This document shows, in pieces, positions 7,566 to 14,271 of a stretch of DNA of 64,000 bases. The notes beneath the pieces were generated by a model. That model was not told the origin of the DNA, did not search any database, and saw nothing but the letters and a program-made list of their open reading frames with translations. Position numbers and translations under genes: made by a program. This DNA is from a virus (Duplodnaviria; Caudoviricetes): the IMG/VR virus record IMGVR_UViG_3300031857_000014; one strand, written 5' to 3'. The stretch's first letter is position 1; the number at the start of each line of letters is the position of its first letter.

Positions 7566-9518
7566 TTACAAGTACAAGTAAGAACCAGGATTACCTACTT
7601 GTATTCTTTCATCACCCACTCTTACATCTATTTTAAAAAGATGTGGTTGTGCGTTATTTACCGGTGCTGTATTTGTATTTGTTGTTGTAGTGGTATTTGC
7701 TGCGGTAGTGGTATTCGTTGTTATTGGTGCTGCTGTTGTTGTTGGTTGAGCGACAGTACCTTGTTGTGTATTTGTATTTGTTGTTGGTGATTTTGTTGCA
7801 GCGCTACCTTTTGGTGTTTTACTTTTAATATATTTATTATTTGCATCAACAATTGCATCCGCAATCCCGGTCATCATATTTTTTACTTCCGGTGCTTCTT
7901 TAGTTGCGAATTTACTAAAATTATCTGCAGCCTTTTTAGGGTCTAACGGACCTCCCTTAACAAGTTCTTCATATAATTTATCCGCAGCTTTACCACCAGA
8001 CCTTCTTGCTAATGCAGCAAGGAAGTTTAAATCTCTTTCAATATTTGTAACAGAGTTTGCTTGGTCTCTAACTATTTGTTCAGGTGTTCTATCTTGTAAT
8101 TCTTTTTGATAAAATAATAATGTTTCTGCTTGTTTTTGCGATAAATTTTCTAACGCAATCTCTTTTGTGTCCTTATCTACACCTAACGCTTCTCTTATTC
8201 TATCACTATTTAATTCTATCATCATTTTACCACCCTTCATCTGAGAAATATTAGTTAGGAATTCTTTCTGTTCGTCTTTTAAATCTAAACCACTAGCCAT
8301 CATAGCAGCAGCTGCTGAAGTTCTTTCTGCGGAAGCAATTGCACCTTTTGCTAGTTCATCATAACTAACCCCTAATGCTTTAGCCATTTCTCTTGCTCTT
8401 CGTAAATTGACACCGGTAATTTCAAATCTACCTTGTTCTGCATTATATGTCGCTAAACTACTGGCGGCACCAATCAATGAATCTTGTAACCCTTCCACAT
8501 TATTTGTCGCCATGTACATTAATTTTAATGGGTCGTTAAAATCACCTATAGCACCACCTAATACTTGTAAGTTCGCGGCTAAATCAATTGCTCCTTCAGG
8601 ATTCATAACGCTTTCTGCAATCTTAAAAACTTCACTCATACTCATTCTGAATTCGGTTGCTTTTCTAATCATATTACCTAATCCTTCAATACCATTTTTA
8701 AAACCAAATTCATTTAATTTACCTATATTCTGTGATAATTCTTTCGTGGTGTTTTTTGATGAAAGACCTAATTGAAGTGATTTCATACCAACCTTTTCAA
8801 TCATTTCGACAGACTCTCTAGCTCCCATTCCAATATTCTCAAATCCAGGTAACATTCTAACTAATTCTTCTAAAGTACCTACGAACGCCTTTGCTGCAGT
8901 ACCTGCTTGTTTCCATGTTTCCGAATTTATAAATGCGAATTTACCCGAATCCCTCACCAAAACCTGAGATGACCTAACCAATTCATCAAACCCAATACCC
9001 ATTCTTAGTAACTCAGGATTTGCATCTGATAGTTCATTTCTTAAATCTTCCGCTAATTGACCGGTAACACCAATTTCTTCATTTACCTGAGTTCTTAATG
9101 CAGATTGTTGTTTCATGTATAGCTCCATGCTACTACCAAGTCCATCAATAATATTTTTACCAATTTGTTGTAAACTATTAACACCACCTTGTTTATCTAT
9201 TACCACATCAAGAAGATCAGTTATTTTAGTATATTCCTCAGTAATATTTGGTAATTGAGTACTACTTTGAGTTGCAATTCCTCCTCTAAATAATTTTGTT
9301 ACACCTTCAAAAACATTAGATGATTTAGTTGAAGTGGAGGTGGTTGATGTTGTTGTATTAAAACGACTAGTAATTTTCGCTTGTTCATCGGGTCTCATTC
9401 TTTCACCACTATTCCATTGATCTAATGCTCTTAGAAACGTGTTTGTTACTGAAGTTTCATCATTGTGTAAATAAAGATAATCATCTATTCTTGGTCTTGG
9501 TCCTTGTCCGTTTGCCAT
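7566..9518 (-). CDS. Tape measure protein
   Basis: 650 aa, Ala/Leu/Gly-rich helical composition, immediately downstream of tube and chaperone genes. Confidence 0.7.
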   Translation of the reverse strand: MANGQGPRPRIDDYLYLHNDETSVTNTFLRALDQWNSGERMRPDEQAKITSRFNTTTSTTSTSTKSSNVFEGVTKLFRGGIATQSSTQLPNITEEYTKITDLLDVVIDKQGGVNSLQQIGKNIIDGLGSSMELYMKQQSALRTQVNEEIGVTGQLAEDLRNELSDANPELLRMGIGFDELVRSSQVLVRDSGKFAFINSETWKQAGTAAKAFVGTLEELVRMLPGFENIGMGARESVEMIEKVGMKSLQLGLSSKNTTKELSQNIGKLNEFGFKNGIEGLGNMIRKATEFRMSMSEVFKIAESVMNPEGAIDLAANLQVLGGAIGDFNDPLKLMYMATNNVEGLQDSLIGAASSLATYNAEQGRFEITGVNLRRAREMAKALGVSYDELAKGAIASAERTSAAAAMMASGLDLKDEQKEFLTNISQMKGGKMMIELNSDRIREALGVDKDTKEIALENLSQKQAETLLFYQKELQDRTPEQIVRDQANSVTNIERDLNFLAALARRSGGKAADKLYEELVKGGPLDPKKAADNFSKFATKEAPEVKNMMTGIADAIVDANNKYIKSKTPKGSAATKSPTTNTNTQQGTVAQPTTTAAPITTNTTTAANTTTTTNTNTAPVNNAQPHLFKIDVRVGDERIQVGNPGSYLYL

Positions 9519-9522
9519 AATA

Positions 9523-9672
9523 TTAACTATTTTCTAATTCTATCATATAATTTATATAATATCTTCTTATATAAATAGGCATAGAGAGAATATCTCCATA
9601 GGAGAATCCTCTTTTAATTAGAAATAAAATTTCGGTTAACTGGTTCTTTTTATATTCCGTAGAAAGGGCGAA
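9523..9672 (-). CDS. Start-less +1-frame ORF, predicted frameshift extension of the tail assembly chaperone (gp51/GT-like)
   Basis: FALSTEYKKNQLTEILFLIKRGFSYGDILSMPIYIRRYYINYMIELENS* (49 aa). The frame opens just after an in-frame TAG two codons before TTT_CGC (9673-9668), has no start codon until M31, and its stop is 5 nt before the TMP ATG. Confidence 0.75.
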   Translation of the reverse strand, partial: FALSTEYKKNQLTEILFLIKRGFSYGDILSMPIYIRRYYINYMIELENS

Positions 9673-10399
9673 AGAATTCTACCCCAAATCCGATTACAAA
9701 TTGGATTTCTTCTCCTGATGGGGTTGTTGCTTTTTGGGTTAAATCTAACCCCGGTTTATTATCTGCAATAAATTTTCTAAAGTCCTGTGCATCTTTAATT
9801 GGTAGATTTTCAATTAAATTTCTGATATTCATTAAATCCTTATTTCCTGCAACCGATTTAATCATGAATTCAAGTTGTTTGGTCATAATCGGAGCATATC
9901 CATTACCATTCCAACTCTTTTGAATTTCTCTTATTTCCGCTTCTTGTTTTTGAGTCAAGAATTTGAAAGTAATATCTACTTTAGATTTTTCCATAAAATA
10001 TGAATATTCCCCATTTGCATCAGGTGTTAAATTGAAATCTTTAACTTTTAAAGTACTTAAATCTACTTTGGTTTCAAACTCTTTGTCTGTTTTCGGGTCA
10101 GTTAGTGTTACTGTATATTCTGAACCAAATGCGGTGTTTCTTAAAAAGATTAAAATCGCTTGTCTATCCTCTTCCGCCAATTCCTCAATTGAAATATCTT
10201 TATCCAAAATCTTTCTTTTCAAAAGTTCGGAGACTATCGCATTTGTTTGAATTAGGTTTGGTGCCGCTAAAATATTTTCGTCCGCTGCTGTTAGATATGC
10301 AACTCTAACTGATTTTTTTCCATTTGGATAATGAATACCTTTTGTTGGTAATTCTACCACATCATAAGAAATTGTTGGGTCTACTCTAAATTGTTCCAT
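9650..10399 (-). CDS. T4 gp26-like baseplate hub assembly protein / tail assembly chaperone
   Basis: VELPTKGIHY...LTAADENIL...EDRQAILIFLRNTAFGSEY...FFRP; sits between tube and tape measure genes. Confidence 0.75.
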   Translation of the reverse strand: MEQFRVDPTISYDVVELPTKGIHYPNGKKSVRVAYLTAADENILAAPNLIQTNAIVSELLKRKILDKDISIEELAEEDRQAILIFLRNTAFGSEYTVTLTDPKTDKEFETKVDLSTLKVKDFNLTPDANGEYSYFMEKSKVDITFKFLTQKQEAEIREIQKSWNGNGYAPIMTKQLEFMIKSVAGNKDLMNIRNLIENLPIKDAQDFRKFIADNKPGLDLTQKATTPSGEEIQFVIGFGVEFFRPFYGI

Positions 10400-10451: not shown

Positions 10452-10478
10452 AAACCCCATGTGTTGAACATAGGGTTT
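10452..10478 (-). terminator. Rho-independent terminator after tail tube gene
   Basis: Minus strand AAACCCUAUGU-UCAAC-ACAUGGGGUUU followed by a U-rich tract. Confidence 0.75.
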
Positions 10479-10498: not shown

Positions 10499-10987
10499 TT
10501 AGTAAACTAAGATACATCTATCTGGTCTCATTGAACAAGTGATAGTTGCCACATCATCTCTTGAATAATCAAGATCATTAAAGTTTAAGTCAGTAATGAA
10601 TGTACCTTGAAGTATCCATTTCTCAACCACAACACCAGTTGGGTCAAGCATTTCCAATTCAATGTCTTTTTTATAACCAGCAGCATAACCCATACGACCT
10701 GTAACAGATTCAGCGTGTAAACGGAACCATTCCATTAACGCCTGTGCCGCTGAAGGACCAATTGGGTCTTTGAAAGTTACTCTCATTTCATTCCATTCAA
10801 ATCTACCAGCAACATAAGTTGATGTATTGATAAATGGAATTGCAACAGAATTGATTTTTGCACTAGGTCTAGCCGTTGATGTCACATACCACTCGTTAAT
10901 ACCCAAAGATGATGGAAATCTAAGGATGAATCGGTTTACTCTTTTCGGTTCATATGGAACCGGCATTTTCATTAATAAATCTGCCAT
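10499..10987 (-). CDS. gp19: Tail tube protein (T4 gp19-like)
   Basis: YEPKRVNRFILRF...IPFIN...AGRFEWNEMRVTFKDPI...GYKKDIELEMLDPTG...W.L.G.F; follows the sheath gene. Confidence 0.9.
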   Translation of the reverse strand: MADLLMKMPVPYEPKRVNRFILRFPSSLGINEWYVTSTARPSAKINSVAIPFINTSTYVAGRFEWNEMRVTFKDPIGPSAAQALMEWFRLHAESVTGRMGYAAGYKKDIELEMLDPTGVVVEKWILQGTFITDLNFNDLDYSRDDVATITCSMRPDRCILVY

Positions 10988-11364: not shown

Positions 11365-14271
11365 TTATATATTCTCAAATGAAGCACCAGTCGGAGTTAT
11401 ATTGAATTCAATCTCAATAAATTCAAGAGACCTAGTTGGTTTTAAGTAAATCTTTCCTCTCAATGTGTTTGCATCTAAATCCTCTGGATCACTAGACACT
11501 CTTACACGGAAATCGTAAAGACCTCTTTCTTTCTTTATAGACTCAAGAATAGGATTTACTAATCTCAAGAACTCTTGTCTTACTTGTTCGTCATTTTGTT
11601 CAAATAACAACCTTACAGATACCGCAGAAATCAATTTTCTTGCTCTCAACAATAATCTTCTAACATTAATTCTATCTAATGCAGATTCTCTTAATTGAAG
11701 AGTTTTATTACCCCAAATAATTGTACCTGTATCTGAGAATGTTGCGATAGGGTTAATTCTGTTTGAATATAAGGTGTCTCTTTCATCTAATGTAAGTTTC
11801 TTATTCGCTTTAATTGATTTAACAAGACCTCTTGAATAACCTGCAACTGCGAACCAAGGATACGATACATTATCGGTTAACGCAATATTTCTAACAACTT
11901 CACCTGTAGGCGGGATGTATAATTGTGTTGCGTTGTCTGTATCTCTAACCTGTATCCACGGCCAGTATGTCGCTGAATAGTTACTATCAATTGCGGAATC
12001 GTCAATCGCAGCAACTACTTCTTCAACACCTTCAGCACCAGTGAAATTAGGAGAGTTCATAATATATAATGAATCCGCTCTATCTTCTTCAATCATTTCT
12101 ATCGCTTGGTTAACCAATGAACTATGATCGTAGAAATTAATACCTGGTGTAGCGAATACATTTATATCAACCGCTTCAGGATTTTCAAATGTTTGAATAC
12201 CTTGAAGATACGCATAATAGTCAGAATTACCATTATTAACATCAAATACACCGCCATTATTTTGATTATTTGCGTTATATGTTGGTTTACCATAAATGTA
12301 ACCATCACCATAAGTTCTAACATTTCTATAGATATCCCAACCATCAAAACCACCACCAGCAGCAAATGTAAATTTACGATATCTGATGTCAGTTAATTTA
12401 TCTCCTACTGGTTGACCCTCCAAATCGTATGGAGTTGTAATATATGTGGTACCTGAAATTGTTGATGCGTTTACAGATAAGTGGAAACCAGATGTGGATG
12501 AAGTACCTTCAGCACCTTTATATTTAAATAAATCATTATCATATCTTGAACCTGTCTGATTTGATAAACCTAAAGATACTTTTCTTACTTTATCTCCATT
12601 TGATAATACCGCGGTACCATCAGCGTCATAATACATTGTATCGCCAGCATCAAAGTATTCTGTTTTATACAAAACATTACCTAAAGTACCACCACCAAAT
12701 GTTTGATTATTTACGAATCCTTTAAAACCAGCAGGGAATGCATCAACAGGTGCGTTATCTGCTATAGATAACATAATTAACTTAGAACGTAATTCATAGT
12801 CACCATTTGATGTACCTATTTTTTTAGCGACATAACCTGGTAAATCAGGATTCATACTACATCTTGAATATTTTTCTAAAACAACAGGATTATCATCAGT
12901 ATCATAGTAATCACGAACCAATAAATCAAAATCACCATTATCCAAATTAATATTAGCTATTTGAATTTTAACTGTGTAGTTTGCACTTTCACCATCAGGT
13001 ATTGTTATAATTTCAAACAAATCTGCAACTTTACCACCTCTAACCTCTGAAACAACCATTGGTGTTATCGGAGATAACCATTGACTCATAAAGTTTTCTG
13101 ATTCTGAATTTACAACTTTTGTTAAACTTAAACCTCTAACATATCCTTTTTGAAATGCAGATTGTAAGAATTTAGGGTATGCCTCATGAACGTATATTGG
13201 ATAGTCTGTTCTTGGTTTATCAAACACATCACTTCCCAAAACTTTAGTTATGTATTTTGAAGATGTTTGATCCATGGAACAAGTGAATTGTTTTGCACCA
13301 CCTGTTGTACCCGTTACGTTAATTATAAATTCTGCTAATGGATTTGTAGTAACACCACTTAAATCATCAATATCGAAACGAGATGAAAGAAATGTTTCAA
13401 GACTTAATGTGTTTTGTTGATAGAGACCTCTACTTCTAAGTGCAGCAACTATTAAATCTTTATACTGTGTTAACTCACCTGCATCGTATTTGAATCTAGC
13501 CACATCAAAATATCCATTTTGTGCGTCATATGCAAAAAGATAAGAATAAACACCATCAACATTTCCACTACCATCAAAAGATAAAAGTTTGTTTATCCAT
13601 TCTTTACCGTTAGGACTATCATCAGTATAAAACCCATTAAGTGGGGAAACTTGTTCAATTCCAAATAAAGATGATAATTCGGTAATCGCATTACCATCCA
13701 AATCGGTAACAATATATGCACCTAAATCAGGTACTAATCCCATAGTAAACCAGTTACCATCTTCAGAAGCACCATATCCACCAAAATTTGTTTCAATGTA
13801 ATCTGTTATTGTTGTTCCTTCAAATGAGAATATATTTGAAAGTTCATTATAAAAAATACTTGATGATGGGTTAGATGGGTCCATAGAGTCCACTACTAAA
13901 CTAGTATGTGCACTTGTATCTGCGGTAACACCAGCTAATGTTTGTATACCAAATGTTGTTGTTGGTTTATATCCAGTTAAACCAAGAATTCTTGTTACGA
14001 ATAGTTGGTTTGATTCTTCTAGATACGATTTAGCAACATACGGTAATTCATATTTTGGATTATCTGCACCGTCTTTTACAGGTGTAGTACTTCCAAAGTA
14101 TACTTTGAATTCATCAAAATTGGTAATTAATATTGGTTCAAATGCGGGACCCTTCAATGTCTCACCAACCAATCCGAGTGTTGTAACACCAACACTTTGT
14201 GCTACGAATGTTAAATCTTTCTCTGAGGTATATACACCGGGAGAAACGAATACTTTGTTTGAATTTGCCAT
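11365..14271 (-). CDS. gp18: Tail sheath protein (T4 gp18-like)
   Basis: N-term FVSPGVYTSEKDL...GETLKGPAFEP; C-term SNYSATYWPW...WFAVAG.SRG...ALDRINVRRLL...PTRSLEFI.I.F. Confidence 0.95.
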   Translation of the reverse strand: MANSNKVFVSPGVYTSEKDLTFVAQSVGVTTLGLVGETLKGPAFEPILITNFDEFKVYFGSTTPVKDGADNPKYELPYVAKSYLEESNQLFVTRILGLTGYKPTTTFGIQTLAGVTADTSAHTSLVVDSMDPSNPSSSIFYNELSNIFSFEGTTITDYIETNFGGYGASEDGNWFTMGLVPDLGAYIVTDLDGNAITELSSLFGIEQVSPLNGFYTDDSPNGKEWINKLLSFDGSGNVDGVYSYLFAYDAQNGYFDVARFKYDAGELTQYKDLIVAALRSRGLYQQNTLSLETFLSSRFDIDDLSGVTTNPLAEFIINVTGTTGGAKQFTCSMDQTSSKYITKVLGSDVFDKPRTDYPIYVHEAYPKFLQSAFQKGYVRGLSLTKVVNSESENFMSQWLSPITPMVVSEVRGGKVADLFEIITIPDGESANYTVKIQIANINLDNGDFDLLVRDYYDTDDNPVVLEKYSRCSMNPDLPGYVAKKIGTSNGDYELRSKLIMLSIADNAPVDAFPAGFKGFVNNQTFGGGTLGNVLYKTEYFDAGDTMYYDADGTAVLSNGDKVRKVSLGLSNQTGSRYDNDLFKYKGAEGTSSTSGFHLSVNASTISGTTYITTPYDLEGQPVGDKLTDIRYRKFTFAAGGGFDGWDIYRNVRTYGDGYIYGKPTYNANNQNNGGVFDVNNGNSDYYAYLQGIQTFENPEAVDINVFATPGINFYDHSSLVNQAIEMIEEDRADSLYIMNSPNFTGAEGVEEVVAAIDDSAIDSNYSATYWPWIQVRDTDNATQLYIPPTGEVVRNIALTDNVSYPWFAVAGYSRGLVKSIKANKKLTLDERDTLYSNRINPIATFSDTGTIIWGNKTLQLRESALDRINVRRLLLRARKLISAVSVRLLFEQNDEQVRQEFLRLVNPILESIKKERGLYDFRVRVSSDPEDLDANTLRGKIYLKPTRSLEFIEIEFNITPTGASFENI

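Follow-up and report, generated by a model that had tools for sequence, protein, structure and literature searches.

A +1 ribosomal frameshift very probably yields two forms of a tail assembly chaperone from a single gene in the phage represented by IMG/VR record IMGVR_UViG_3300031857_000014 (Duplodnaviria; Caudoviricetes). The gene lies in a stretch of 64,000 nucleotides (nt) with 30% G+C, called here the window, which belongs to a phage record consisting of a 142-kb fragment estimated to be ~43% complete. Its product of 249 amino acids (aa), a chaperone of the phage T4 gp26 type, would be accompanied by a 291-aa protein translated from the same mRNA after a shift at UUU_CGC, forming a pair that resembles gpG and gpGT of phage lambda. 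Comparison of the sequence with those of its relatives indicates that the recoding site is real and strongly conserved.

Organization of the chaperone gene and of its extension

All genes of the tail cluster are encoded in the minus strand of the window. The tail sheath gene is followed by the tail tube gene, the gene coding for the 249-aa protein, an apparent gap of 131 nt and a gene coding for a 650-aa protein at the position of the tape measure gene. The elements relevant for the proposed shift, including the open reading frames (ORFs), are the following.

9650 to 10399, minus strand: gene of the short product, a gp26-like (PF12322) tail or hub assembly chaperone of 249 aa, frame 0, stop codon included (assigned from its ORF, Pfam, PHROGs, the AlphaFold2 (AF2) model and BFVD)
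9668 to 9676, minus strand: proposed shift site UUC_UUU_CGC, where pairing would move from the P-site UUU (9673-9671) to UUC (9672-9670) with the rare codon CGC (9670-9668) in the A site; the exact position is the most plausible one
9650 to 9681, minus strand: interval in which the shift must fall, between the +1-frame TAG (9681-9679) and the frame-0 TAA (9652-9650) (frame stops, column entropies and alignment)
9523 to 9669, minus strand: +1-frame extension of 48 codons (ALSTEYKK...IELENS) followed by TAA (9525-9523), the carboxyl-terminal part of the putative 291-aa product (conserved peptide and frame +1 periodicity)
7566 to 9518, minus strand: tape measure protein gene, 650 aa (relatives have a gene annotated as tape measure at this position)

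The 3' end of the chaperone gene reads GGA TTT GGG GTA GAA TTC TTT CGC CCT TTC TAC GGA ATA TAA, and the frame 0 carboxyl terminus is thus ...GFGVEFFRPFYGI*. After its TAG the +1 frame is open over the stretch NSFALSTEYKKNQLTEILFLIKRGFSYGDILSMPIYIRRYYINYMIELENS, which runs through the frame-0 stop and counts 51 codons from stop to stop, 48 of them past the slip. The first ATG, GTG or TTG codon in this ORF is that of the Met in the sequence 'SMP', 19 codons short of the end. The -1 frame closes 5 codons beyond the frame-0 stop. The initial annotation, made from the window sequence, had described this two-frame layout as it is found, with a start-less +1 ORF preceding the tape measure ATG (9518); two details are corrected here, as the gap between the extension stop and that ATG is 4 nt and not 5, and the ORF has 51 rather than 49 codons, a number that depends on the point from which codons are counted. 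The product that it had predicted, in which a slip from UUU to UUC leads to a 291-aa protein beside the 249-aa form, is also the one obtained here, with GVEFF-ALSTEYK at the junction.

Conservation among close relatives

A scan of IMG/VR yielded 80 loci encoding proteins 67-77% identical to the chaperone, and the region is complete in 73 of them (42 distinct sequences). Every one of the 73 loci has TTT TTT CG(C/T/A) or TTC TTT CGC at the end of the chaperone gene, the in-frame TTT followed by C being invariant, and a +1 ORF of 48-50 codons comes after the site in all of them. In nearly all loci 11-24 nt separate the end of this ORF from the tape measure ATG.

The nucleotide variability of the aligned sequences, measured as column entropy, peaks upstream of the site at the third codon position of frame 0 and, from the frame-0 stop on, at the third position of frame +1. 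The 24-nt overlap between the two frames is almost invariant among close relatives, as expected of a sequence coding in two frames; column entropies and alignment place this dual-coding block from ~9679 down to the frame-0 stop. The extension varies among close relatives like a protein under selection (for example ALSTDYKKGQLDEILFLVKRGFSYGDILSMPVYIRRYYIQYLISLENGNN). A layout kept in every evaluable relative, together with a switch of variability exactly at the site, goes far beyond what chance would produce.

No start codon is conserved in the +1 ORF, and the window, like at least 10 other distinct sequences of the clade, lacks one ahead of codon 29 of 48. Some relatives have a TTG or an ATG near the overlap; the upstream TTGs arise where the conserved codons for Gly-Phe-Gly-Val overlap the +1 frame. 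The initial annotation had put forward a programmed +1 shift in which tRNA-Phe slips at UUC_UUU_CGC, and this reading holds on all the comparative tests proposed with it. The start-less +1 ORF is conserved in homologs as a protein. The alignment check of TTT CGN was borne out for TTT followed by C or T, while CGN is kept in the close clade only.

An in-frame fusion of the two parts was sought among 5.8 billion proteins with residues 238-291 of the fused product, and a single match was found, encoded in Logan contig L103 (positions 672-1546; ERR14822396_74969). This contig reads GAA TTT TTT GCC CTT, without the C of CGC, so that chaperone and extension are in one frame. A second frame break near the 5' end of the same gene makes a read error the likely origin of the fusion, which could still be a natural, fixed one. 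A megablast search of the region against phage records gave no match.

Distant relatives and the direction of the shift

A tblastn search of phage records identified the family, at 24-31% identity, in eight phage genomes, six of them from cultured isolates: Flavobacterium phage immuto, Microcystis phage Mel-JY01, Listeria phage LIS04, Streptococcus phage GXN1, Bacillus phages HSE3 and SP-15, Xanthomonas phage phiXF1 and an uncultured 484-kb phage. The order of sheath gene, tube gene, chaperone gene, a gap or small 'hypothetical' ORFs and then the tape measure gene is found in all eight, and in all eight the +1 frame is open across the chaperone stop, which is closely preceded by an in-frame TTT with C or T as the next base.

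A further scan of IMG/VR seeded with the Mel-JY01 protein matched more than 600 stretches, among which ~78 loci (62 distinct sequences) coding proteins 43-59% identical to that of Mel-JY01 were evaluable. The motif TTT TTT TGG CCT is present in 72 of these loci. The +1 ORF is complete in 76, where its length is 62-108 codons with a median of 66; the -1 frame usually reaches a stop sooner, at a median of 12 codons, and shows no conservation. The corresponding locus search with the Xanthomonas phage protein found no related loci.

Residues L2, P31 and R35 of the extension are invariant in the alignment across groups that are 25-35% identical, and a profile-profile comparison of the extensions of Firmicute phages and of relatives of the -1 type with those of the window and Mel-JY01 groups gave an hhalign E-value of 6e-12. 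By sequence comparison, the extensions of all these groups are one homologous domain. The genes of the -1 type code for the same protein family as that of the window and would also change frame at the end of the domain, but in the opposite direction, while in the window the -1 frame closes early. Agrobacterium phage Atu_ph07 has CAT TTT TTC GCA TGA followed by a -1 ORF of 75 codons, and the uncultured phage LR756511 continues in the -1 frame. The -1 extension of LR756511 matches a hidden Markov model (HMM) of the +1 extensions with an E-value of 2e-7 and that of Atu_ph07 does so weakly (E 0.026), showing that the same domain is reached by a -1 shift in some lineages and by a +1 shift in others.

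Protein family and fold

The 249-aa protein matches Pfam family PF12322 (T4_baseplate) over positions 9-218 of the 219 of the profile with 47.3 bits (cut-off 24.5), and PHROGs family phrog_150 ('baseplate hub') with an E-value of 1e-14. Its AF2 model has a predicted local distance difference test score (pLDDT) of 86.9, and the matches of this model in BFVD (E-values of 1e-15 to 1e-8) are proteins labelled baseplate hub subunit or hub assembly protein (gp26/gp51). A Foldseek search of the PDB with the model gave no match. Judged by its gene position and by the frameshift, the role of the protein is that of tail assembly chaperone in these phages.

Two pairs of CxxC cysteines form a zinc ribbon in the family, and the window protein has no cysteines at the aligned positions. 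Both pairs are lost in the window clade, in the Mel-JY01-like proteins and in those of Flavobacterium phages, and are kept in T4 gp26 and gp51 and in the proteins of Bacillus, Listeria and Streptococcus phages. Their absence is a lineage loss and gives no ground to exclude the window protein from PF12322.

The extension alone matches no family of PHROGs or Pfam, and the chaperone itself matches no Pfam family besides PF12322. A complex of the extension and the tail tube protein, predicted from a separate alignment for each, scored 0.16 with the mark at 0.32, a value that has no bearing on binding either way.

The second-best structural match in BFVD is a protein of 430 aa from Myoviridae sp. 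ctNQV2 (A0A8S5RZL9; 28% identity), perhaps a family member that is naturally longer or a fusion.

Proposed slip site and mechanism

Codon usage was counted in the 43 long ORFs of the window. CGC is the second-rarest sense codon, with 3 occurrences among 17,789 codons and among 633 Arg codons, and only 2 of 632 in-frame TTT codons are followed by CG. A P-site tRNA that pairs at least as well one base further on (UUU to UUC), combined with a slow A-site CGC codon, is the classical recipe for a +1 shift. Most ribosomes would stop at the TAA and release the 249-aa form. A minority would pause with tRNA-Phe on UUU (F243), held up by the following CGC, which this phage uses very rarely; the tRNA would then re-pair one base forward on UUC and translation would proceed in the +1 frame through 48 further codons. 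The resulting form of 291 aa (...GVEFF-ALSTEYKK...IELENS) would end 4 nt ahead of the tape measure start codon. By analogy with lambda gpG and gpGT, the part common to the two forms would be the one that covers the tape measure protein, recruitment of the tube or the hub would fall to the extension, and the ratio of short to long form would be set by the slip rate. The efficiency of the shift and the binding partners of each part are likewise presumptive.

The +1 direction has to be weighed against other routes to the same long product. A -2 ribosomal shift or slippage of RNA polymerase on the T run would join the same two frames, and most relatives do have a run of six T (TTT TTT CGY) or seven T (TTT TTT TGG) at which -2 re-pairing of tRNA-Phe would be perfect and at which a transcript one U shorter would lead into the same frame. 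This is nevertheless unlikely, since the window and loci L083, L004, L005, L007 and L187 read TTC TTT C, where a -2 re-pairing lands on UCU and the T run is 3 long. In these lineages the first Phe codon has changed to TTC, which also implies that only the second UUU matters, and a +1 shift at UUU_C is favoured as TTC TTT C allows it and permits neither a -2 shift nor polymerase slippage. Locus L001 has TTT CTT and L008 has TTT CTA, and an in-frame UUU followed by a pyrimidine is the only feature common to nearly all lineages. The two kinds of slip predict different junction peptides, GVEFFALSTEYK for +1 and GVEFFFALSTEYK for -2. It is very unlikely that the +1 ORF is instead a separate small gene for a 'gp51-like' peptide, expressed by re-initiation or from a non-canonical start. 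Annotators called small separate ORFs there in several isolates and, as noted above, a TTG or an ATG occurs near the overlap in some relatives, but the upstream TTGs are by-products of chaperone codons and the peptide is conserved from its first codons, ahead of any start that the window and many of its relatives could use. The +1 ORF also always overlaps the end of the chaperone gene, and a slippery UUU_Y or CCC_A always lies within the overlap. That no recoding takes place, the +1 frame being open by chance in AT-rich DNA or the break reflecting a sequencing error or a decaying gene, is hardly conceivable. Contig L103, with both parts in one frame, would fit this explanation, but its second indel in the same gene marks it as the likely error; the same break recurs in 73 and ~78 independent metagenomic loci (42 and 62 distinct sequences) and in eight phage genomes, and the +1 frame is under clear purifying selection.

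A +1 shift at UUU_CGC, yielding a short and a long chaperone from one mRNA, remains the most probable explanation on these comparisons, and several observations weigh against it or against parts of it. The A-site codon is not conserved beyond the close clade, other lineages having TGG, CTT, CAC, CCC or AGT after UUU, and GCC, the codon entered in the +1 frame, is itself uncommon. No conserved RNA structure was found 3' of the site (-1.9 kcal/mol, no covariation); the efficiency may be low given that no stimulatory element was identified. The T6 and T7 runs of relatives would let a -2 slip or polymerase slippage reach the same frame, and the slip codon is assigned to UUU by logic from the sequences compared. 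Four loci that resemble Firmicute phages (L185, L186, L188 and L189, at ~2195-2235) lack UUU_Y and would need a slip at CCC_A in the overlap: they read GAA TTA TT(T/C) AAT CCC AGT AAG TAA, where CCC_A is the sole plausible +1 site. CCC and UUU are cited in the PRFect paper as the most shift-prone codons after CUU in prfB-type experiments (PMC10885494). The functional roles proposed for the two parts of the protein derive from the lambda analogy. VIA-align comparison of the model with 48,161 PDB chains placed 3fgx (Z 5.7), the HK97 chaperone 2ob9 (Z 4.9), YqbN (3klu, Z 4.7), a PLE protein and a protein of phage YuA at the top, and these alignments span residues 125-223 with all scores under the caution level of Z 8, too low for a claim of shared fold. 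YqbN/XkdN (3klu) is presumably also a tail chaperone. The clustering of tail assembly chaperones (3fgx, 2ob9 and 3klu) at the top of the list is suggestive only.

Relationship to T4 gp26 and gp51

Phage T4 gp26 and gp51 are described in a review of the T4 tail as hub assembly chaperones whose mechanism is unknown (PMC3004832). Both gp26 (208 aa) and gp51 (249 aa) match the whole PF12322 model, and gp51 then has ~48 further residues in frame. The PF12322 domain ends at the same Glu-Phe-Phe motif in T4 and in the window protein. T4 gp26 ends with ...KEFFELL, its Glu-Phe-Phe motif being kept as GAG TTC TTT GAG where the base after UUU is G, and no +1 ORF follows T4 gene 26 (L089, 10803-10830), whose +1 frame closes after 7 codons. 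The end of this gene looks like a relic of a shift-site context without the shift.

T4 genes 26 and 51 are separate neighbouring genes, transcribed divergently from each other, and have no frameshift. T4 carries two PF12322 genes, while Bacillus phages HSE3 and SP-15 and the 142-kb fragment of the window have one each; Flavobacterium phage immuto and Microcystis phage Mel-JY01 have a single candidate each, below the Pfam threshold. Two genes in T4 versus one candidate in each of the genomes of the frameshift type examined, the four phage genomes among them being complete, suggest that T4 encodes the short form (26) and the long form (51) separately. T4 gp51 is like the long product of the window in having the domain followed by a tail of ~48 aa, the same length as the extension. 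T4 differs from the window in that the two forms come from two genes with no shift, in that the zinc-ribbon cysteines are kept and in that the similarity between gp51 tail and extension is weak.

This similarity was sought by several means. No match to phrog_634 ('hub assembly catalyst') is found in the record of the window phage itself, and a BLASTP comparison of the fused product with T4 gp51 gave nothing significant. An HMM of the extensions reaches gp51 with an E-value of 0.064. Fusing the extension to the domain lengthens the alignment to phrog_150 from position 232 to 264 or 274, with a gain of 6.1 bits for the window protein and of 3.7 bits for that of Mel-JY01. Comparison of all extensions with 40 gp51 tails by hhalign gave a P-value of 0.007 (0.007-0.056 across runs), a score reached by 3 of 200 column shuffles; it aligned GGF..dvynMPI.lRrfyi with K..Ydl.SiM.MiPiERsiaLSLiE, and one intermediate run chose another register. 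On these sequence comparisons the extension may be homologous to the gp51 tail, a relationship that is weakly supported. The initial annotation had suggested that gp26/gp51-like pairs may often be frameshift products; this stands in outline, with both T4 proteins in PF12322 and an in-frame tail of matching length in gp51, while the direct resemblance between extension and tail is weak.

The chances appear evenly balanced that two forms of the tape-measure chaperone, one short and one long, are a requirement of all long-tailed phages including T4, and that the gp26/gp51 family has made this pair interchangeably by a -1 shift, by a +1 shift or by duplication with an in-frame tail (T4 26/51). Gp51, the long-unexplained 'hub assembly catalyst', would then be the equivalent of gpGT and T4 would be no exception to the rule of Xu, Hendrix and Duda.

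Comparison with known frameshifts

Lambda gpG and gpGT and the conserved tail chaperone frameshift were described by Levin (1993) and by Xu, Hendrix and Duda (2004), as reviewed in PMC5009743. According to this 2016 review, the G/GT frameshift is conserved in long-tailed phages 'except T4' (PMC5009743). Like lambda G/GT, the gene in the window lies between the genes of the major tail or tube protein and of the tape measure protein, and its products would share their amino-terminal part; the second ORF lacks a start and ends just before the tape measure gene, and the arrangement is conserved where sequences are not. It differs from lambda G/GT by the shift being +1 instead of -1, by the lack of an X_XXY_YYZ heptamer and by coding a protein of PF12322. 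In the literature searched, no paper was found that connects a frameshift or the tail assembly chaperones with gp26 or gp51, or that describes the +1 or the -1 version, though an earlier description may exist.

UUU_CGN is the motif of the +1 shifts of influenza PA-X and of amalgaviruses. The window shares with these a P-site UUU, a rare CGN codon next to it, a tRNA-Phe able to re-pair on UUC and the lack of a stimulatory structure, but they are eukaryotic RNA viruses with unrelated proteins and the likeness is in mechanism only. The +1 shifting in influenza A PA-X, which has no known stimulator, and in amalgaviruses is covered by the same review (PMC5009743), as are the +1 shifts in phage structural genes of Listeria phage PSA (CCC_UGA) and of the tail chaperone of the haloarchaeal myovirus HSTV-2 (PMC5009743). 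Both phages resemble the window in the forward direction of the shift in a tail gene; four of the loci analysed here have CCC_N as candidate site and HSTV-2 is a +1 precedent of the G/GT type. Their protein families and hosts are others.

If the reading is correct, these loci would be widespread, naturally replicated bacterial +1 sites of the simple kind described as 'slippery codon plus hungry codon'. The use of -1 shifts in the same family would make it a good system to study what fixes the direction and the efficiency of a shift. The T4 gp26/gp51 family would be placed among tail assembly chaperones, and gp51 would acquire a testable role as the long form, connecting the complex of the tape measure protein with the tube or hub. 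Since the G/GT principle is well known, what is gained is a variant and a link that unifies known systems rather than a system of a new kind. All six isolate records examined that annotate this stretch miss the long product: four call small hypothetical ORFs and two leave a gap. With more than 600 IMG/VR stretches in one related group alone, this annotation gap is probably widespread.

Neighbouring genes and transcription signals

Three further elements precede the chaperone gene.

11365 to 14271, minus strand: tail sheath gene, 968 aa (phrog_23 tail sheath, E 1e-61)
10499 to 10987, minus strand: tail tube gene, 162 aa, directly upstream of the chaperone gene (phrog_4542 tail tube, E 1e-25)
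10452 to 10478, minus strand: strong hairpin that resembles a terminator and has a T run, in the interval from the tube gene to the chaperone gene (from sequence, with a putative function)

The tube gene is found upstream of the chaperone gene in 158 related loci.

A late-promoter motif of the tape measure gene had been placed inside the extension by the initial annotation, but TATTTATA at 9570-9577 is not conserved there. Of 38 distinct relatives, 37 have the sequence TATTTAT past the extension stop, 4-5 nt upstream of the tape measure ATG; it fits the 'leaderless late promoter' motif of this genome. The window has TATT alone between the extension stop and the tape measure ATG (9519-9522), without TATTTAT.

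The hairpin at 10452-10478 may lower the dose of chaperone and tape measure protein relative to that of the tube protein. A terminator is annotated at the same position between the tube and chaperone genes in Bacillus phage SP-15.

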